A stretch of 57,185 nt of DNA from Dehalococcoidia bacterium (GTDB lineage Bacteria > Chloroflexota > Dehalococcoidia > Lucifugimonadales > UBA3495): the NCBI GenBank assembly GCA_030740155.1, contig JASLXV010000079.1, forward strand, positions 1 through 57,185, given 5' to 3'. The notes under the pieces are model-generated. The model ran no database searches. It saw only the letters and a program-made list of their open reading frames with translations, and was not told the origin of the DNA. Below are positions 3,410 through 49,379 of the stretch, piece after piece (positions within the stretch are counted from its first letter, which is position 1; each line of letters begins with the position of its first letter). The translations under genes and the position numbers were made by a program.

Positions 3410-4627
3410 ATGGGTAAGGCATTGGATGGGATTCGGGTCATCGATATGACCCACGAACAGGCAGGTCCTTCCTGTACGCAAATGCTGGCCTGGCTGGGCG
3501 CAGATGTTATCAAGGTGGAGATGGCCGATGGCAGAGGGGACCGCTCCCGCTGGCTGCGCCGCGACGACCCCGACAAAGACAGCTATTTCTTCCTCTTGCT
3601 GAACAGCAACAAGAAGAGCGTTACCCTTGACCTCCGGCAGCAGAAAGGCAAGGAGGTGTTCAAGACTCTGATTAACTCCGCCGATATTGTGGTGGAGAAC
3701 CGTGGGCCCGGAGCCATGGAACGGCTGGGATTGGGCTACGAAGACCTCAGCAAGATCAACCCTCGCCTGATCTACGGGTCGGTGAAGGGGTACGGCTCAT
3801 ACGGCCCGTACGCAGATTACAAGTGCTTCGAGCACGTGGCCCAGGCGACCAGCGGCGCCATGAGCGTTACTGGCTGGGATGACCGGCCGCCTTCGGTCTC
3901 GGGTCCCGGCGTGGGTGATTCGGGCACGGGCATGCACATCGTCATCGGCCTTCTGGCGGCTCTGGTCCAGCGCAACGTGACCGGCAAGGGACAGGTGGTG
4001 GAGGTTGCCATGCAGGAGGCGGTGCTCAACCTGACTAGGGTCCGCTTTACCGGGACGTTGAAGGACGGGCAGCCGGAGCCGCGCCTGGAGTTCCCGGGCC
4101 GCGGCCACCCAATGGGGTTGGGCGGTCTCTTCCCGTGCGCTCCCGGTGGCCCCAACGACTACGTGTACATGATAATTCCCGCCGAAAACAACGTCATGTT
4201 CAGCGCGGCGGTGGGGGTGATGGACCGGCAAGACTTGCTGGAGGACCCGAGGTTCGCCGGCCCGTCCGACCGGCTGGATCACTCCGTGGACCTGTTCGGC
4301 ATTATCAAAGCTTGGACCGAAGTCCGGGAGAAGCGCGTAGTCATGGAGGCCTTCGGCGAGGCGGGCGTTCCCTGCGGCGCGGTGTTCGATACCGCCGAGG
4401 TGCTTAAACAGCCCCACCTGATCGAGCGCGGGGTGGTTACCGAACTCGTGCACCCGGTCCGCGGAAAGTACACCGCGATAGGCTCCCCGGTGAGGCTATC
4501 AGATTCTCAGGTGGAGTTGAGCCGTTCTCCTCTGTACGGGGAGCACTCCGACGAAGTGTTCACGACCCTCGGCGGGATGACCCAGGAAGAGGTGGACGAA
4601 CTGCGCCGCCAAAAGGTGATCGTTTAG
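3410..4627 (+). CDS. Class III CoA transferase (CaiB/BaiF; formyl-CoA transferase-like)
   Basis: ALDGIRVIDMTHEQAGPSCTQMLAWLGADVIKVE, NSNKKS, GDSGTG. AGGAGG RBS precedes ATG 3410. Confidence 0.9.
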   Translation: MGKALDGIRVIDMTHEQAGPSCTQMLAWLGADVIKVEMADGRGDRSRWLRRDDPDKDSYFFLLLNSNKKSVTLDLRQQKGKEVFKTLINSADIVVENRGPGAMERLGLGYEDLSKINPRLIYGSVKGYGSYGPYADYKCFEHVAQATSGAMSVTGWDDRPPSVSGPGVGDSGTGMHIVIGLLAALVQRNVTGKGQVVEVAMQEAVLNLTRVRFTGTLKDGQPEPRLEFPGRGHPMGLGGLFPCAPGGPNDYVYMIIPAENNVMFSAAVGVMDRQDLLEDPRFAGPSDRLDHSVDLFGIIKAWTEVREKRVVMEAFGEAGVPCGAVFDTAEVLKQPHLIERGVVTELVHPVRGKYTAIGSPVRLSDSQVELSRSPLYGEHSDEVFTTLGGMTQEEVDELRRQKVIV

Positions 4628-4720
4628 GCGAGCCAACCTCGGCGCAGGCCGCGCCCTTTAGCCGGAATCATTCATGCTGGCCGCCACCGGCACGACGGCC
4701 GACGAAAATAGACGCCGCTA

Positions 4721-4820
4721 CGTCATCCCGAGTCCTTCGCGGGAAGGACGAGGGATCTGGGGAGGTGGAGGAGAATCCCCATCCCAGATGCCTCGCCGCT
4801 ACGGCTGGCTCGGCATGACA
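4721..4820. repeat. REP-like palindromic element (GTCAT...ATGAC ends)
   Basis: cgtcatcccgag...gggatctggg / cccagatgcctcg...ctcggcatgaca imperfect inverted repeat downstream of a gene. Confidence 0.55.
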
Positions 4821-5161
4821 TTTTCGAAGCAATGACAACGCTCTCACCTCCGCCCCAAGGCCCAGATACAAGAATGACAACCATCAGCATCAAGCTGACT
4901 GATTTCTAGCCTAGACGCGCCGGCCAAGTCATTCCAGTTCCATGACCGGTGGCGCTCCCTCTGCCCCGGCCGGGCAAGAGGTGGCTGCCGGGCAAATTCC
5001 CGCCCTTGTTTGCCTCCCCGCGAGTATCCGACACCGGATTAGGTCTGCCCCAGCGGCGGTGGCCGCTCGCGCTTGAGTGGTGGTAGAATCCAGGCGGCTC
5101 GATAGATCGAATCGTCACGAACGCCCCGGCAGGAGACTGCTCTGATAGGAGTCCCCACCCC

Positions 5162-9814: not shown

Positions 9815-10594
9815 TTATTTTGACCCGAAGAGCTTCGAGAAGAACCCCGGCTTGCGCTCGCTCTCTCCGGAGCCGCCCGAGACTCCTCCGCCGGAGCCGT
9901 TGCTGAAACGGCCCTCGAGTGCGGTTAGCCACTCGCGCTCGGCGGGATCGATCTCATCTTGAACCCATTGGATTATCCAGCGGGGATCATCGGCCCCTTC
10001 TTCGGTCAGGATCTGCTTGACCATGTCAAGCTGTTCCTGCTCGCTCATCCGTTCCTTTACCACGGAGCACACAAACGCTTCTTCATTCTCGAAGTGATCG
10101 TACTCTAGGATTCGAAGCGCCATGATCCGCCGGTACAGGTGCCTCCTGGTCCGGCCGGTAACGGTGCTCTCCCCTAGCGCGGCCTTCAAGGCGGCCTCAA
10201 CCTCTTGTGCCTTATCCGCCAGCTCCTGGTGCTGACCGTCCTCCATAGAGAGCATGGCAGCTTTCACGCTCTCTTCCAATCCGGCTCCATCGCCCTTTTC
10301 GATGAAACCCACCAGGCCTGTGCCCTGAGCCGCCAGCTCGGCGTGCTCGGACTCGTTGTCCCGGGCCGGCTGACAATCGGTCAAGGGGGCGGTCATGACC
10401 TTATCTTCGATGGTGGCGTGATAGAGCAGTTGCTTCATCCAGAACATGAAAGCTTCTTTAAGTGCTCCCAGGTCGCCGCCGCTCTGCGCCTCGGCCGCCA
10501 ACGCCTCCGTCCGCTCCGACTGGGCCCGGAAGGCTTTGTGCATCAGGATCATCATGTCAATGGGGGCCTCAAGTTTGGTAGTCTCCAATGCCAT
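9815..10594 (-). CDS. Hemerythrin/HHE-domain protein
   Basis: MHKAFR, LLYHATIED, EHAEL, DHFENEE (H, HxxxE, H, HxxxE pattern). Confidence 0.75.
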   Translation of the reverse strand: MALETTKLEAPIDMMILMHKAFRAQSERTEALAAEAQSGGDLGALKEAFMFWMKQLLYHATIEDKVMTAPLTDCQPARDNESEHAELAAQGTGLVGFIEKGDGAGLEESVKAAMLSMEDGQHQELADKAQEVEAALKAALGESTVTGRTRRHLYRRIMALRILEYDHFENEEAFVCSVVKERMSEQEQLDMVKQILTEEGADDPRWIIQWVQDEIDPAEREWLTALEGRFSNGSGGGVSGGSGESERKPGFFSKLFGSK

Positions 10595-12297: not shown

Positions 12298-13074
12298 TTA
12301 TCTCTTGCCCCACAGTCTCCCCGTGAACACTCCATCGTAGATTATTCCGGCAATGGCGGCCCCGCCCAACGGCCCAACCCAGTAGATCCAGTGGTCCGTC
12401 CACATCTCGGCAGCCAACGCCGGACCCAAAGCCCGGGCCGGATTCATGGCCGCTCCGGTCAATCCCCAGGCCAGGAGAGTCCCCACGACCACAATCAGGC
12501 CCACGGCTATCGGAGCGACGGGTGACGCCCCTTCACCGGGACCGATGACGGCCGCCAACATCACGAAGACCAGGACGAAGCCGAGGATCAACTCGATGAC
12601 CAGGGCCGACCCAAGGTTATCCACCGCGATCGGATTCCACGCCACGCCACCCAAATTCCCTTCGATGCCTATCGCGACGTCAGTCAGCACCACCTTGAGA
12701 ATATATGAGGCGACGATGGCGCCGGCTACTTGGCCAATCACATACACGACGCCTTTGGCCACGCCCATGCGTCCGGTGACCACGGCGCCAAAGGTTACCG
12801 CCGGATTGATGTGCCCACCGGAGATACCGACGGTCAGGGCCACCAATGCCATGTAGGTGAACCCCAAGGCCAAGGCGATTGCCACTAGTCTGGCACTGCC
12901 GGTCAAGACCGTGGCATCCGCCGCCACGTTGCCGGAAAGGACGTCCAGGGCACCCGTGGCGATGATGGCGCCCGTCCCGACGAGAACGAACACCAAGACG
13001 CCGATGGTCTCTGCCACCACCCCTCTCCACGTGTCGACTGACGTGAGGTCTCCAATGCCCAGTATTTTGTCCAT
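12298..13074 (-). CDS. MIP/aquaporin family channel
   Basis: ISGGHINPAVT and AAMNPARALGP (two NPA motifs), HWIYWVGPL. Confidence 0.92.
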   Translation of the reverse strand: MDKILGIGDLTSVDTWRGVVAETIGVLVFVLVGTGAIIATGALDVLSGNVAADATVLTGSARLVAIALALGFTYMALVALTVGISGGHINPAVTFGAVVTGRMGVAKGVVYVIGQVAGAIVASYILKVVLTDVAIGIEGNLGGVAWNPIAVDNLGSALVIELILGFVLVFVMLAAVIGPGEGASPVAPIAVGLIVVVGTLLAWGLTGAAMNPARALGPALAAEMWTDHWIYWVGPLGGAAIAGIIYDGVFTGRLWGKR

Positions 13075-13663
13075 CGGTCTACCTCCTTTAGACAGTTATC
13101 CAAGCCGATGCCGGACTGTGCCGGCACAACTCCCTCGGTGGTGCCGGCCCCGCGGGCCGGCGTTCTTGGCAGGCTCCCGGCGTACCCAGGGGCAAAAGAA
13201 CAATTGGGGCAACGGCACTTCTGCGCCGGAGCCCCACTGCACCCATCCCGCCGGTCCCGACGAAAAGTGTGTATCGGATGGCTAGTTTACGTCGAGTGAC
13301 AAGCTAAATATCGATAGAAGCTTCCCAATATCATTGAGTGCCCCGAGGCTACCATGGAAACCAAGATTTTGCAATGCAATCCTGCATCCTAATTCGGCCA
13401 CACCTGAATAGGCGGGCCCCGGCTGACGCTCAGGCGATGCGGTTCTCCAATTTCATAGCCAACACGTCATTGCTGAGACCGAGGGTTGTGGGCAGCTTGG
13501 TTCTGATCCCGGATAGAGGCGCGTCCGGGGCCGAGTCTCGCAAGCCGGCGACAGCCATCAGGAGGACCCCGGCGCCAATCGCGCTTACGGCCCGGCCCCG
13601 CGCCGGACTTCCAGTTGTCATCAGCAACCCTTCATGTGCATCAGACATTTGTAAACCCAGCCC

Positions 13664-14524
13664 TCATGCCAGCGACTCCAGGAACCGGTCGACCGGCATC
13701 CAGTCGCCATGGCTTGGCAACTCTCCTCCACCCCAGTCCCGCAGGTGCTCTTCCGACCGGAAGAGGTTATTATTGCCTCAGGTGCCGCCCCGGTAGACGA
13801 CGGTCTCATCCGGGGACACGCGAGCCAGCGCTCCGTCCGCAACGCCGATCTGAATCCGGTCCACACAATGGGCGCAGGCGTCGTCGAGGGTCAGCGACCG
13901 TCCCCGGTACTGGCTGCTGACCAGCAGCAAGAAGTCCACGGCTCAGGATATTCCGAACCGCTCTCCCGTATCCAGAGTCACCGTATGGAAGGAAAACCCA
14001 AGCCCATCCAGCAGGCGCTCGTGACCTTCGTTAAGGGAGTAGTGAGCGGCGCGCCAGCCATCCTCGATGAAAAGGAAGTCGATCAGGCCCAGCATGCGGA
14101 GGGCACGGTGAACACCCTGAACCGTGAGACCGAGAACCGCCGCTGTCTCCTCGGGGCGGGGCAGTGACAAACCCTCGCGGTGGGCCATCAAAATATGCCG
14201 CGCCACCAGTTTCTCATCCTCGGAGAGCAGGATAGATGCCGGGTGCCAGGTATCCACCTGGTCAGCCCATCGCTTGGAGAACCCCCCCTCCCCGGCCAGG
14301 GCTTCATCCGGCAGCCGTCCTAGGGACGCCAATATCTCGCGCTGCTTTTCGGGGCCGAGGAGCGTGCCGCGCCACTGCCCCTCCAGCCGGCCGGCCAGCC
14401 GCCAGCGCAGGCCCGGATCGTCGGGGAGGCCCAACCGCTCCATGGCCTGAGGGATGCTGGTGAGGCGCAAGCCGGTGGACCAGTCCGAGGTCAGAACATC
14501 TTCCAGCCGGTGTTCGGATTCCAA
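13664..14524 (-). CDS. MerB-like organometallic lyase selenoprotein, 286 aa with two Sec (U194, U249)
   Basis: Reading through TGA 13943-13945 and TGA 13778-13780 gives GERFGISUAVDFLL...DDACAHC...VSPDETVVYRGGTUGNNNLFRSEEHLRDW, which aligns to MerB WCALD...SHC...FCCHVHFF..W. Each TGA is followed by a SECIS-like hairpin. Confidence 0.8.
13748..13765 (-). promoter_or_regulatory. SECIS-like hairpin for the second UGA of the MerB-like gene
   Basis: CUCUUCC-GGUC-GGAAGAG, starting 12 nt after the UGA. Confidence 0.8.
13913..13928 (-). promoter_or_regulatory. SECIS-like hairpin for the first UGA of the MerB-like gene
   Basis: GCUGCU-GGUC-AGCAGC, starting 14 nt after the UGA. Confidence 0.8.
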
Positions 14525-14527
14525 AAC

Positions 14528-14935
14528 CTACTCCACGCAACAGGCCATCATCGATACATCGTGGGTGAAGGCCTGGGCCACCCGTTTGATGCCTTCACTA
14601 AAGGTCCGAAAAACGTGCAGAGTATCGATGAGGTCGTCAACGGTCAGGCCGAACTTCACGGCTAGGGTGGCCTCATGAATCAAGTCGGCCGCGTTGGGCG
14701 CGACGATGTGCACCCCCAGGACCTTGGAGCTTCGCGGGTGGATGGCCATCTTGAAGACTCCCCGTTCCTCTTTGAGGGCCTGGGCCTTGGGAACGGCATC
14801 CATGTAGATGGTGCGACAAGAGCAGGCGTTGAAGCGCTGCATCTCCTGGTCCTCGGTGAGGCCCACGGCGGCCACCTGGGGATTGGTGAACACGGCGTGG
14901 GGTACGTGCTCGTAGTTGATGCTGCGCACCGGCAC
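14528..14935 (-). pseudogene. merA: Mercuric reductase (MerA) C-terminal dimerisation domain only; FAD/NADPH domains missing
   Basis: [29 protein letters not shown]-like [20 protein letters not shown]-terminal MACCVE vicinal cysteines. No room for the N-terminal domains because the glutaredoxin stops at 14979. Confidence 0.75.
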
Positions 14936-14978
14936 GGTCCCATTGGGCGGTTCTTCGTTGACTCGGGCGCCGGGCAGG

Positions 14979-15215
14979 TTATGCCGCCAGCAACCTCTCG
15001 AGCTTTTGGCGGTCGAAGCCGACGACCACCTCTCCATCTATCACGGTAACCGGCGTGGTCAGAACCCCGATTCTGGTCAGTTCAGTCATGGCCGAGGCAT
15101 CGTTGATGATGTCCCTCACCTGGAATGAGATACCGGTCTGGGAAAGAAACTCTTCCGTGCGGTCACAGAAGTGTCAACCATCGGGCTGAACGTAAAGGAG
15201 AACACGAGGGGCCAT
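14979..15215 (-). CDS. Glutaredoxin/NrdH-like selenoprotein with UHFC active site (78 aa, absent from the ORF track)
   Basis: GGAGG RBS, then [36 protein letters not shown]...[32 protein letters not shown] at 15174-15176. Has the cis-Pro TP motif and the Grx C-terminal GFD motif. Confidence 0.88.
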
Positions 15216-15305: not shown

Positions 15306-15791
15306 TCAAAGGCCCCGGCCGCTTCCTCTGGCCCCCGCCTTTCCTACCCGGCGGTCGTCGAGCCAGCCCACGGCTGCCTCCCCTTCGGCGGGTGCGCTTC
15401 CCTCGATGATCCCGCATATGTCTCCGCCTAACGGTCTGCAGTCCACCAGGCCGCCCGCCTGGTCTCGCAGCGTGGAAAGCTCGGCCCGGAACTCATGGAG
15501 TTCCGCGATGGCCTTCTCAACCTGGGACAGTTTTTCTTCGAGAAGCGTTCGAACATGGACGCACGTGGGTTCCCGGCGGTCGTGTAGCTGCAGGACGCTC
15601 TTGATCTCACTCAGCGAGAGGCCAAGGCGTTTGGCTTTTAGAACGAAGTCCAGCCGTTTCGCATCGGCTTCGCCGTAGACCCTGTATCCGGACGTGGTGC
15701 GGACAGGCTCGGGCAGCAAGCCCTCCCCTTCGTAGAAGCGGATGGTTTTCGCCGTCAGGCCAGTTGCCGCCGCCAGCTCACCGATTCTCAC
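15306..15791 (-). CDS. MerR-family heavy-metal-responsive transcriptional regulator
   Basis: RIGELAAATGLTAKTIRFYEGEGLL HTH. Three-Cys pattern PTC...DC-x7-C as in divalent-metal sensors (MerR/ZntR/CadR). Confidence 0.92.
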   Translation of the reverse strand: MRIGELAAATGLTAKTIRFYEGEGLLPEPVRTTSGYRVYGEADAKRLDFVLKAKRLGLSLSEIKSVLQLHDRREPTCVHVRTLLEEKLSQVEKAIAELHEFRAELSTLRDQAGGLVDCRPLGGDICGIIEGSAPAEGEAAVGWLDDRRVGKAGARGSGRGL

Positions 15792-28855: not shown

Positions 28856-28930
28856 GGTTTGCAGGTAGTCAACCGGAGAGCAAGCCGTCGCCGAGGGCAA
28901 GAGAATGCTGGGCGAGGAAAGAGGTACGAC

Positions 28931-30274
28931 ATGGCAGATCCGAATACGGTTGTTCACTTCTTGAACCAGTTCTTCGGCGGTATCGGCGCCGAGGAGCAGG
29001 CCTATGCCCCGGTCCAGGAGAAAGAGGGGCCGGTCGGTCCGGGGAGGGCCCTTCAGGCGGCCCTGGGCGACCAGGCGGCCGTGGTGAGCACAATTGTGGC
29101 CGGAGACAACTACTTCACCGAGGAAGTTGAATCCGCGAAAGCCGCCGTGGCTGAAATTCTGGACCGGATCAAGCCAGATATGGTAATAGCCGGGCCCGCG
29201 TTCGATGCGGGGCGTTACGGCCTGGCCTGTGCGGAGGTGTGCCGGCTGGCCCAAGGCATGGGTATCCCCGCCGTTACGGGAATGTTCCCGGACAACGCGG
29301 GAGTGTTGACCTATCGCAAGGAAATCCTGGCAGTGTCCTCGGGGATCGACATCTCGGAGATGGCCTCGGTGGTGGGGAGAATGGCCCGACTGGCGATGAA
29401 GCTGGCGCGTGGAGAGGAGTTGGGCCCCGCCTCGGAGGAAGGCTACGTCCCTAGGGGCATCCGCCGGGAGGTGATGCACGACCGCCCGGGCTACGAGCGG
29501 GCCGTGGACATGCTGAACGCTCGGCTCGCGGGAAAGCCGTGGGTCTCTGAAATGCTTATCACCGGCTACGATGTGGTTCCGCCAGCGACGCCGCTGAAGA
29601 ATTTGAAGGAATCGACCATAGCCCTGGTATCGACCGGCGGCCTGGTGCCCCGGGGAAACGAGGACCGGCTGGTGGGCAGCAGGGCGGAGCAGTTCTTCCG
29701 GTACAGCCTGGAAGGGGTGAGTTCCCTGAGCGTCGAGGATTGGGAATCGGTGCATGGCGGCTTCGGCACCCTGATTCTCAACACCAAGAACCCCAACTAT
29801 GCGATGCCCTTGCAAACCGTGAGGTATCTGGAGGACACCGGCGCCATTAAAGCCGTGTACCCCTGGTTTTTCTCCACGACCGGCAATGCGGCCGCCGTGA
29901 GTGCCGGCCGGCGCATGGGGGCCGAGATCGCGGCGGAACTCAACGAACATCACATTGACGGCGTGCTGCTGGTGGCCACTTGAGGGAGTTGCAATCGTTG
30001 CGGCGCAACGATCGGCAAAGAGATCGAGCGGGCGGGAATTCCAGTGGGTATCATGACCGCTATGCCGGCAATACCCCTGGCGGTGGGCGCGAACCGAGTG
30101 GTCAGGGGAGTCCGGGTATCCCACGTCTGCGGAGACCCCGCGCTCTCGGCGCAGAAAGACTGGGAGCTGGGGGTCCGCATCGTAGAGACGGCCCTGAATT
30201 CCCTGGTGACGGCCGTCTCCGGCCCGACCCTGTTCGAACCATCCGAGCCCGAGCCTCAGGAGGCCGCCCTATGA
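28931..30274 (+). CDS. Glycine/sarcosine/betaine reductase selenoprotein B-like subunit, 447 aa, Sec351
   Basis: HFLNQFFGGIG, AGPAFDAGRYG, HGGF. In-frame TGA 29981-29983 gives VATUGSCNRCGATIGKEIERAGIP (GrdB UxxCxxC) and joins ORF 30044-30274. Confidence 0.93.
29994..30012 (+). promoter_or_regulatory. SECIS-like hairpin
   Basis: AUCGUUGC-GGC-GCAACGAU, starting 10 nt after the UGA. Confidence 0.8.
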
Positions 30275-33330: not shown

Positions 33331-34432
33331 ATGAAGATCACGGGACTCACGGGGCACATCTTCGAACCCAGGACCAACCATCATCAGGAGACCCCGGAGT
33401 TCGTCAGCGCCTCGGTCCGGCGGAACGGCCTCGCCATCATCTCAACCGACGAAGGGATTGACGGAGTTGTGTCCTCCCGGTCGGACAACCTGCTGCTGCT
33501 GGCCCAACTGTGGCCTGAAGCCAGGGAGCACATCGAGGGGCAGGACCCTTTCGACCGGGGCCGGATGGAGAACATGCTCAGGCACCGGTTTCGCTGGTCC
33601 AACAAGGCCATCGGCATCCTCGACTACGGCCTGTGGGACATCGCGGGCAAGAGCCTGCGTCAACCCATATACAAGCTGCTGGGCAGCACCAGGGAGAAGG
33701 TGCTGGCCTACGGGTCGACGGTCCATTTTGCCAGGGATGAGCAGTTCGTGGAGTCAACCCTGGGCCCAGGCCAAGGGCTTGACGGCGGTGAAGCTGCATC
33801 CCTACTGCGTCGCCGCCGACGACATCCGCATGTGCCGCGCGGTGCGCAAGGCCGTGGGCGACGATTTCACCCTCATGTTGGACACCCTGGTCTACCCTGG
33901 CCCCTACGACCGTCAGGATGCGCTGCGGGTGGGCCGCGTGCTGGACGAACTCAACTTCTGGTGGTTCGAGGACCCGCTGCCCAAGACGGACCTGGACGGA
34001 CTGACTGAACTGACTCAGGCTTGTCAGGTGGTGCAGGTACGGATGGGAGACCAGGTGGACGACATCCACGAATACGCCGAGATGGTGCGCCGCCGGTGCA
34101 TGGACATCATGGCCGGACCGGCTTCCTTCGGCATCACCGCCCTGATGAAGATGGCCCACATGGCGGAGATCAACCATATGAATTTCGAGCCCCATGACTT
34201 TGGCCGAGGGACCGCCAGCCTCCACGTGCTCCTGGCAATCAACAATGCCGACTATTACGAGATTGCCGTGCCCCAGGGGTGTTTCGACGAGGCGATCTAT
34301 CCCGGGGTTTACCTCGACTCGGTGAAAGCAGACGCTGAAGGCTGGGTCCATGCGCCTACCAAGCCAGGGTTGGGCTTTGAAATCGATCTCCGGGAGGCCA
34401 AGAAAGTCACTGAACAGACCATCCAGCCTTAG
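33331..34432 (+). pseudogene. Mandelate racemase/muconate lactonising (enolase superfamily) enzyme, frameshifted near 33762
   Basis: Frame 1 carries LDYGLWDIAGK..PIYKLLG; the next frame carries AVKLHP, LMLD, WFEDP, EPH, PTKPGLGFEID. Confidence 0.8.
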
Positions 34433-48014: not shown

Positions 48015-49379
48015 GTGACAAACGGCGCGACAGCCAAAGTAAGGGTGGTGCACTACATCAACCAGTTCTTCGCGGGACTGGGCTCCGAAGAAGCCAACGA
48101 CACACCTTTGCAGGTGAAGGAAGGCCCGATCGGACCCGGCCGGGCGCTGCAGCAGGCCTTGGGAGAGCGGGGCAGCGTGGTATCCACCATCTTCGCCGGA
48201 GATGACTTCTTTGTTTCCAACCAGGAAGAAGCTGTCGCCCAAGTTGCTGCTTCGCTGCGGGAGATAAAACCTGACCTGCTTCTCGCCGGACCGGCCTTCG
48301 ACGCCGGCCGCTACGGTCTGGCCTGTGCGTTGGTGTGTAAGACGGCCTGGGATATGGGCATACCCGCGGTAACGGGGATGCACCCAGACAACGCGGGCCT
48401 CTCTGCCTACCGGCAGGCCGTTCTAGCCATGCCCACCGGCGAAACTCCCGTGGAGATGGCCGCCAACTTGAAGAGCATGTTTGGGCTGGGACTGAAGCTG
48501 GTGCGACAGGAGCCTCTGGGGCCGGCCGATGTCGAGGGGTTTCTGCCCACTGGAATGCGGCGCCTGCACCAGCGAGAAAAGCCCGGCGGCCAACGTGCCG
48601 TTGACATGGTGCTCGACAGGGTGCTGGGCCGGCCCTTCGTGTCGGAGATCCCGGCCCGGCCTTACGAGGCGGTGGACCCGCCGGAGCCGATCTTGGACCT
48701 GCGAGGCGTCGCCCTTGGGCTGGTCACCTCGGCGGGGATTGTGCCCAAGGGCAACCCGGACCAACAGTCCAGCGCTATTCCCCGCAAGTTGGTGTCGTAT
48801 AACATCACGGGCCTGAACGCCCTGATCGTGGACGATTGGGAGTCGGTCCACGGAGGATTCAAAGGCTACATCTACAACACCGTCAACCCCAACTACGCCA
48901 TGCCGCTACCCGCCCTGCGAGCGGCCGAGGCCAAGGGGTTGATCAAGGCCATCTATCCCAAGGTCTTCTCGGTGGTGGGCGCCGGCTGCCCGGTATCGGA
49001 CGCCAAACGCATCGGCGGAGAGATAGCCCGGCAGTTCAAGAACGACGGGGTGCGGGCGGCGATCATCGCCTCCACTTGAGGGAGCTGCAATCGTTGCGGC
49101 GCAACGATGACCAAAGAACTGGAACGGGAAGGCATAGTGGTGGCGATTATCAGCGCCCTCCCGGCCGTACCGTTATCCCTCGGCGCGCACCGCATAGTCC
49201 GTGGAGTCCGGGTCGAACACCTTTGCGGTGATCCGAACCTCTCGCGGGATCGCGACCGAGAGTTGATGTACAGCATAGTGGAAACCGCGCTGGAGGCGAT
49301 CCAAACTCCGGTGACCAAGCCCACGGTCTTCGACCCATCCTCCGACAGGTCCTCCAGGGAAGTGGCCCATGCGGCTTGA
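48015..49379 (+). CDS. Second GrdB-like selenoprotein B subunit, 454 aa, Sec355
   Basis: HYINQFFAGLG, AGPAFDAGRYG. TGA 49077-49079 read-through gives ASTUGSCNRCGATMTKELEREG and joins ORF 49107-49379. Confidence 0.93.
49090..49108 (+). promoter_or_regulatory. SECIS-like hairpin
   Basis: AUCGUUGC-GGC-GCAACGAU, 10 nt after the UGA; identical to 29994-30012. Confidence 0.8.

Follow-up and report, generated by a model that had tools for sequence, protein, structure and literature searches.

The SECIS element (selenocysteine insertion sequence) of Escherichia coli fdhF is a short hairpin located in the coding sequence directly 3' of the UGA codon for selenocysteine (Sec), with a GGUC loop that has G-U at loop positions 2 and 3. 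The conserved bases of the E. coli element are reported to be U17, G23 and U24, of which G23 and U24 lie in the loop and the bulged U17 is required (PMC8659212). Bacterial SECIS elements are described as having 16–37 nucleotides (nt) between the UGA and the apical loop (PMC10778597), and the common minimal element as an apical hairpin of 5–6 base pairs (bp) (PMC4607533). The catalytic residues of the organometal lyase MerB are given as Cys96, Asp99 and Cys159 (PMC8261052). SaoL (NF040728) is reported to be a MerB-like organometallic lyase selenoprotein of about 213 amino acids with one Sec in a C-U dipeptide, which belongs to the nine-gene SAO locus of anaerobes that includes the ABC transporter SaoABP (10.1101/2022.07.06.499078). 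Here, we analyse both strands of a 57,185-nt stretch of DNA from a Dehalococcoidia bacterium (contig JASLXV010000079.1), referred to as the window. Judged by sequence comparison, the minus-strand gene at positions 14524–13664 very probably encodes a MerB-family (organometal lyase-like) protein in which the equivalents of both catalytic cysteines are UGA-encoded Sec, each with its own SECIS.

The MerB-like gene consists of 286 codons and a stop, starts with TTG at 14524, and has Sec codons at 194 and 249. Both UGAs share the frame of a 193-residue open reading frame (ORF; 13943–14524, minus strand), and reading through them extends the product to a third TGA (13666–13664), which is the true stop of the gene; homologues terminate at a similar position, by TAA, TAG or TGA. 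The first UGA (UGA1, Sec194; 13943–13945) lies in the motif U-A-V-D and aligns with the equivalent of MerB Cys96, and the second (UGA2, Sec249; 13778–13780) lies in the motif GGT-U-G and aligns with the equivalent of Cys159. On the minus strand, site 1 reads UCC-UGA(13945-13943)-GCCGUGGACUUCUU-GCUGCU-GGUC-AGCAGC-CAG, and site 2 reads ACC-UGA(13780-13778)-GGCAAUAAUAAC-CUCUUCC-GGUC-GGAAGAG-CAC. Hairpin 1 (13913–13928) has a perfect 6-bp stem and its loop at 13922–13919, and hairpin 2 (13748–13765) has a perfect 7-bp stem and its loop at 13758–13755. The spacers between UGA and hairpin are 14 nt at site 1 and 12 nt at site 2, the UGA-to-loop distances are 20 and 19 nt, and the first loop G is located at +21 and +20 after the UGA, respectively. 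Both hairpins are inside frame-continuous coding sequence, directly downstream of an in-frame UGA. An initial annotation of this DNA had proposed these stems, loops, spacers and loop positions, which are exact to the base on the minus strand. It had also pointed to the GGUC loop of E. coli fdhF, and the K-12 gene indeed has UGA followed by 18 nt and GGUC.

Hairpins of this kind are rare in the window. An exhaustive scan of both strands for perfect Watson-Crick stems of at least 6 bp closed by a 4-nt loop yielded 74 hairpins, of which exactly two, hairpins 1 and 2, have the loop GGUC. The claim that one gene carries two hairpins with the same GGUC loop is thus borne out, and no other such hairpin is present in the window. 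In 200 block shuffles of the window, the mean number of GGUC-loop hairpins was 0.24 and the maximum was 2. When stems of at least 6 bp with loops of 3–5 nt starting with GG were considered, 20 hairpins were found, and a TGA precedes the loop by 19–21 nt in four of them: the two MerB-like sites and, at 30002 and 49098 on the plus strand, the Sec sites of two GrdB-like genes.

The two UGAs and the sequences following them are conserved in related loci. A scan of genome contigs matched 22 stretches, 12 of which encode a relative of the MerB-like protein and represent 10 distinct loci (L001–L010), all from metagenome-assembled genomes labelled Chloroflexota, Dehalococcoidia or SAR202. Each of the 10 loci has TGA at the two positions, always 55 codons apart, and the reading frame is conserved past each UGA at 43–52% protein identity. 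The conserved peptide is U-A-[IV]-D-[FY]-[LM]-L-L-V-[SN]-S after UGA1 and U-G-[QKN]-N-N-L-F-[RQ]-S-E-[EG]-H after UGA2. The terminal stops of the 11 genes (that of the window and those of the 10 loci) are TAA in three, TAG in three and TGA in five. Individual copies show further differences. The L006 copy (about 3998–4834) contains three extra in-frame TAA or TAG stops while both hairpins are still present, and it is either a pseudogene or the product of poor assembly. The L005 copy has TGA at the equivalent of Trp93, which is Trp in all other sequences.

The RNA-level tests were based on 60-nt alignments of the same 11 sequences. In hairpin 1, 98.5% of the 66 base-pair cells are paired. One of its pairs changes in a compensatory manner, being U-A in seven sequences and C-G in four (CUG/AGC versus UUG/AAC), one pair has a G-U variant, and one terminal pair is broken, in L006. 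None of 500 shuffles matched the observed paired percentage or covariation score. In hairpin 2, pairing extends to 98.7% of the 77 cells; two pairs carry a one-sided change (U-A to U-G), and one terminal pair is broken, in L009. RNAalifold, applied to both alignments, selected exactly these two hairpins and no other structure. The initial annotation had tied its proposal to conservation of the hairpins among UGA-containing homologues, and both are kept in 11 of 11 sequences. One qualification concerns the loop: at site 1, all 11 sequences have GGUC, whereas at site 2 nine have GGUC and two have AGUC, as a result of a change from Arg CGG to Gln CAG. The G-U at loop positions 2 and 3 is invariant at both sites, and the first loop G is not. 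The rule of the bSECISearch paper reportedly calls for a G in the first two loop positions.

Codon choice within the hairpins is constrained beyond the protein sequence. In a codon alignment of the 11 genes, we counted how often sequence pairs sharing an amino acid use the identical codon. This proportion is 0.78 in hairpin 1 (227 of 292) and 0.88 in hairpin 2 (265 of 302), compared to 0.51 (3717 of 7287) in the remainder of the gene. When 228 six-codon windows were ranked, the top 12 all started at residues 199–203 or 249–255, inside the two hairpin zones. In hairpin 1, GTC and AGC are used by all 11 sequences without exception, with usages of 0.30 and 0.20 elsewhere in the genes. In hairpin 2, the same holds for CTC, TTC and TCG (0.16, 0.57 and 0.24 elsewhere), and CGG is used in nine of the 11 sequences, corresponding to nine of nine Arg codons, at a usage of 0.31 elsewhere. 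Outside the hairpins, GTC, AGC, CTC, TCG and CGG are thus minor codons of these genes. The stems overlap the conserved peptide motifs LLLV[SN]S (hairpin 1) and LFRSEE (hairpin 2).

Protein databases contain the Sec/Cys pattern expected of a selenoprotein family. A word-indexed search provided 57 homologues, 11 of which were aligned in full view and 56 in summary; P0002, identical to the window protein over 193 residues, was excluded from the 56-sequence alignment. Of the 11 fully viewed homologues, five terminate exactly ahead of residue 194, and the other six have Cys194 and terminate exactly ahead of residue 249. When 1.84 billion representative sequences were searched exhaustively with HMMER, 96 matches were obtained, which were classed by BLASTP against the query. 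Of these, 23 terminate immediately ahead of site 1, and 17 carry Cys at site 1 but terminate immediately ahead of site 2. Six fragments begin after site 1 and terminate immediately ahead of site 2, 15 sequences contain Cys at both sites, and 19 fragments cover neither site. One, P0092, has Trp at both sites, most likely because a gene caller read TGA as Trp under another genetic code. The other 15 comprise six that carry Cys at site 1 but do not extend to site 2 and nine with other residues, gaps or partial coverage at the sites. We infer the UGA at the truncation points of these database proteins. The database relatives are mostly truncations of 187–193 or about 244 residues, and the 189-residue pieces have no Pfam domain.

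The read-through protein matches the Pfam family MerB (PF03243) over residues 180–266 with 28.7 bits, marginally above the cutoff of 27, and phmmer aligns it with the MerB2 structure PDB 5c17 at an E-value of 9.5e-5. In the latter alignment, Sec194 is placed on the Cys of C-A-I-S and Sec249 on the Cys of G-G-T-C. The residues aligned to MerB Cys96, Asp99 and Cys159 are Sec194, Asp197 and Sec249, so that the acid would be retained and both thiols replaced by selenols. An AlphaFold2 model calculated from a 17-row alignment has a mean predicted local distance difference test score of 88.2 and a predicted template-modelling (TM) score of 0.86. The top 11 Foldseek matches of the model in the PDB are all MerB, with E-values from 8.5e-8 to 8.5e-5 and a probability of 1.00; the global TM-scores are low, 0.29–0.32 when normalised to the query, at a root-mean-square deviation of about 13 Å. 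The first approximately 170 residues are predicted to form a helical extension, in which Foldseek matches to DtxR/MntR-type winged-helix proteins did not reach significant E-values. The N-terminus of the protein aligns with the N-termini of its homologues. Membership in the SaoL family was considered and rejected: the protein reaches 19.5 bits with the SaoL model NF040728, the cutoff of which is 140, the sequence around the second Sec is G-G-T-U-G rather than a C-U dipeptide, and the neighbouring genes differ from those of the SAO locus.

The window contains further evidence for the use of Sec. Two paralogous GrdB-like genes, both on the plus strand (28859–30274 and 48015–49379), match Pfam GRDB with E-values of 1.7e-113 and 1.4e-104 and share the read-through motif T-U-G-S-C-N-R-C-G-A-T. 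The first has its UGA at 29981–29983, followed by the SECIS_4-type hairpin CGUUGC-GGC-GCAACG (unit 29981–30021), and the second has its UGA at 49077–49079, followed by a SECIS_4 hairpin (unit 49077–49117). Both sites have a 12-nt spacer, a perfect 6-bp stem and a GGC loop at +19, which corresponds to 18 nt between UGA and loop. The Rfam model SECIS_4 (RF01990) matches positions 49080–49117 with 39.8 bits, above its gathering score of 38, and positions 29984–30021 with 30.9 bits, which is below that score, with the same core. Each GrdB-like gene is followed by a gene of PF09338, 'Gly_reductase component B'. TGA ends 15 of the 39 Pfam-positive ORFs of the window, including the two GrdB Sec sites; it is an ordinary stop for the other genes of the window, and therefore UGA is not reassigned. 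The 50 nt across the terminal TGA of the MerB-like gene (13666–13664) fold with -4.8 kcal/mol at z = +1.8, and there is no hairpin behind that stop.

Several observations weigh against two working SECIS elements in a two-Sec gene. Folds of minimum free energy (MFE) calculated for 50 nt at the sites have z-scores of -0.37 (site 1) and -0.42 (site 2) relative to dinucleotide shuffles, 64 and 60 of 200 of which, respectively, fold at least as well. The folding check suggested by the initial annotation thus did not favour the hairpins, and at neither site is the single-sequence MFE structure the proposed one: it is a shifted register at site 1 and a different fold at site 2. In a context of 57 nt, the ensemble probability of the hairpin varies from 0 to 0.99 across the sequences and reaches at least 0.5 in two of 11 at site 1 and five of 11 at site 2. 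Single-sequence thermodynamics neither supports nor excludes the hairpins. A covariance scan of positions 13600–14000 against Rfam at E-values up to 10 matched no SECIS family and returned two chance snoRNA matches only. Both stems are perfect and lack the bulged U found in E. coli. A bulged U in the 5' arm is a feature specific to E. coli. No Pfam match to SelA, SelB or SelD was found at E-values up to 1e-5 in 85 hand-picked ORFs of at least 120 residues (of 141), and neither ARAGORN nor Rfam detected a tRNA-Sec in the window. The only call of ARAGORN, a 97-nt tRNA-Gly(ccc) at 9887–9983 on the minus strand, lies inside a hemerythrin-domain ORF (9815–10594, minus strand) and has no Rfam tRNA match at the gathering score, and therefore is probably a false positive.

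The evidence from covariation is also limited. The compensatory pair of hairpin 1 separates two clades, and therefore may represent a single event, and the change entails a replacement between Ser and Asn. Hairpin 2 shows no compensatory change in the 11 sequences, and its shuffle control was uninformative. Accordingly, the covariation looked for in the initial annotation is present as one pair in hairpin 1 and absent from hairpin 2. Moreover, the Cys-type MerB paralogues encoded in L002 and L003 also contain an inverted repeat behind the codon equivalent to Cys159 (two paralogues), because the Phe (UUC UUC) and Glu (GAA GAA) codons of the motif F-F-P-S-x-E-E are complementary. The conserved protein motif F..S.EE thus accounts for part of stem 2. 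The loops of the inverted repeats in the Cys-type paralogues are 7–9 nt long and have no G-U on the 5' side. The Sec forms are set apart by their tight GGUC (or AGUC) loop and their frozen codons. The initial annotation had regarded the RNA evidence as independent of protein homology. The independence is not complete, because the stems sit in conserved peptide motifs, and the Phe and Glu codons of the MerB motif, which partly sets stem 2, are complementary to each other. Its central proposal that both UGAs are recoded is supported by the conservation of the UGAs and hairpins, the synonymous constraint, the Sec/Cys homology and the use of Sec in the same genome.

The observations can also be explained in other ways. 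Both UGAs could encode Sec while one or both GGUC hairpins are not functional SECIS elements, the real element being another fold, such as a shifted register or a longer structure, and the GGUC hairpins being side products of codon choice. The MFE structures of the window agree with this, and so does the shifted register of hairpin 1 (7 bp with a CAGCA loop), which is paired in 96.1% of cells; the complementarity of Phe and Glu codons, which yields an inverted repeat even in Cys-type paralogues, points the same way. Nevertheless, we rejected the shifted register as a candidate. It is broken in three of the 11 sequences at its only variable pair, whereas the proposed register covaries and the proposed hairpins are those selected by RNAalifold. 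Furthermore, the GGUC loop and its codons are fixed against the codon-usage background, and the geometry matches that of the GrdB SECIS_4 elements in the window. We therefore regard the existence of a different element as improbable, and both GGUC hairpins are in all likelihood, as far as sequence comparison can tell, working SECIS elements.

Two explanations dispense with Sec altogether. The UGAs might be read as a standard amino acid (Trp, Cys or Gly) by a near-cognate or suppressor tRNA or under a reassigned code, with the hairpins merely slowing the ribosome, and the Trp at both positions of P0092 shows that some gene caller did read TGA as Trp. Such decoding is very improbable given that TGA terminates other genes of the window and the MerB-like gene itself, that both positions align with catalytic, metal-binding Cys in the classical Sec/Cys pattern, that two GrdB-type selenoprotein genes occur in the window, one of them having a SECIS_4 element above the threshold, and that the hairpins have the geometry and the G-U loop of SECIS elements. 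Least probable, and already contradicted by the conservation data, is that the locus is a pseudogene with two nonsense mutations, or three separate ORF pieces, in which the hairpins are chance inverted repeats. Gene callers of public databases do cut the gene at the UGAs, and L006 does have its additional in-frame TAA and TAG stops, but the same two TGAs with conserved sequence after each are present in 10 of 10 loci at the divergence given above. The 0.24 GGUC hairpins expected per window by chance also contrast with two that are observed 20–21 nt after precisely these UGAs, and the synonymous constraint peaks at the hairpins.

Based on the reading of both UGAs as Sec, a mechanism for the synthesis of the MerB-like protein can be proposed. 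The complex of SelB, GTP and Sec-tRNA(Sec) would bind the apical G-U of a hairpin through the C-terminal winged-helix domain of SelB. When a ribosome has the UGA in its A site, the tethered complex would deliver Sec in competition with release factor 2. The ribosome would then melt the hairpin, and the process would be repeated 165 nt later at the second UGA. The MerB-like and GrdB-like hairpins of the window are presumably served by the same SelB. We infer SelB binding, the actual insertion of Sec and the substrate of the enzyme.

At the RNA level, hairpins 1 and 2 are new members of a well-known kind, the ordinary bacterial SECIS. Their UGA-to-loop distances of 20 and 19 nt fall within the reported range of 16–37 nt, the distance being 18 nt in fdhF and at the GrdB-like sites. 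They share with fdhF of E. coli the position in the coding sequence directly 3' of the UGA, the GGUC loop, and G-U at loop positions 2 and 3. In contrast to fdhF, where the first loop base is at +19, the loops here are located 1–2 nt further from the UGA, the stems are perfect instead of containing the bulged U17, two elements are present in one gene, and the host is Chloroflexota-like rather than proteobacterial. The SECIS_4 elements of grdB type (Rfam RF01990), which occur twice in the window, resemble the MerB-like hairpins in their perfect 6-bp stem, small loop starting with GG, 12-nt spacer and loop at +19, and the SECIS_4 model likewise has no bulge in the 6-bp stem. They differ from the MerB-like hairpins in having a triloop (GGC; consensus GGU) instead of the GGUC tetraloop and stems of unrelated sequence.

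The protein can be compared to SaoL and to canonical MerB. SaoL shares the MerB fold, has Sec at the position of MerB Cys159, and is typically truncated at the UGA in databases. In contrast, the protein described here has T-U-G at this position, a second Sec at the equivalent of Cys96, and an N-terminal extension of about 170 residues, and its gene has MerR, a MerA fragment and an MIP channel as neighbours, with no conserved SAO-like neighbourhood in L002–L009. Canonical MerB and MerB2 (PDB 3f0p-type and 5c17) share with it the fold, the motif C-A-x-D ... G-x-C ... F.S.E and a mer-type context with MerR. They differ in that both of their Hg-ligand Cys correspond to Sec in the MerB-like protein, and the sequence similarity is low. 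A canonical Cys-type MerB gene is located immediately upstream of the two-Sec gene in L002 (2876–3721) and L003 (2988–3713), with Pfam scores of 96.6 and 94.6 bits. The MerB-like protein of the window is 14–17% identical to these neighbouring MerBs, and both of its Sec sites align with their catalytic Cys. The accessible parts of two review inventories list only SaoL under MerB (PMC9312934; PMC13188914), the 2026 inventory giving it one Sec (PMC13188914), and those of two surveys of mer genes do not mention selenocysteine (PMC8261052; PMC12874090). No description of a two-Sec MerB was found in the literature searched, the coverage of which ended short of supplements and subscription journals. 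The two-Sec MerB-like lyase is distinct from the one-Sec SaoL and appears to be an undescribed variant.

The genes next to the MerB-like gene are all encoded on the minus strand. Upstream are an ORF (14528–15037) for the C-terminal dimerisation domain only of a MerA-like pyridine-nucleotide disulphide oxidoreductase (Pfam PF02852, E-value 2.1e-27), ending in ...ACCVE, and the gene of a MerR-family regulator (15306–15791; Pfam MerR_1, MerR-DNA-bind and MerR). The FAD/NAD part of the MerA-like protein is absent, because only about 270 nt separate the ORF from the MerR gene, and the ORF may be a remnant or encode a stand-alone domain. Downstream, a gene for a channel of the MIP/aquaporin family is located at 12298–13074 (Pfam PF00230, E-value 5.8e-55), and the approximately 590 nt between it and the MerB-like gene contain no convincing ORF. 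The context of MerR, MerA-like and MIP genes fits a mer-like, organometal-related role, although the context does not prove the substrate. Among 39 ORFs from seven of the 10 homologous loci, no conserved neighbourhood was found except for MerB in L002 and L003 and transposases in L004 and L005. Transposase or integrase genes adjoin the two-Sec gene at 2827–3860 in L004 and at 859–2646 in L005. The neighbourhoods otherwise differ between the loci, which, together with the adjoining transposases and integrases, suggests mobility. Elsewhere in the window, an enzyme of the mandelate racemase/enolase superfamily has its N- and C-terminal domains encoded in overlapping plus-strand ORFs of different frames (33331–34008 and 33458–34432), which may be due to a frameshift or a sequencing error.

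The value of the hairpins is that, together with the Sec/Cys homology, they would establish the gene as that of a selenoprotein with two Sec. We consider it nearly as likely as not that the gene represents an undescribed selenoprotein family, a diselenol MerB-type organometal lyase in which both metal ligands are Sec with their own SECIS, widespread in marine and subsurface Chloroflexota (SAR202, Dehalococcoidia) and coexisting with Cys/Sec and Cys/Cys forms. If ocean and sediment metagenomes are surveyed with merB hidden Markov models, the relatives would not be counted, because their database versions are truncated and the 189-residue pieces have no Pfam domain. If the family is real, merB-based surveys of methylmercury demethylation would miss it as a whole, since gene callers stop at UGA1 and leave in public databases only an N-terminal piece of 189 residues that lacks the MerB domain. 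Replacement of both Hg-ligand thiols of MerB by selenols, of which we found no description in the literature searched, would bear on the release of the Hg(II) product and on its acceptor. The affinity of a diselenol site for Hg(II) would be far higher than that of a dithiol, which would suggest either scavenging of trace organomercurials with ultra-high affinity or a different organometal substrate. The family would also show how a SECIS stem can make use of a peptide motif (F..S.EE) with inherently self-complementary codons, and its U/U, C/U and C/C forms would provide a natural series for studying why Sec replaces Cys.

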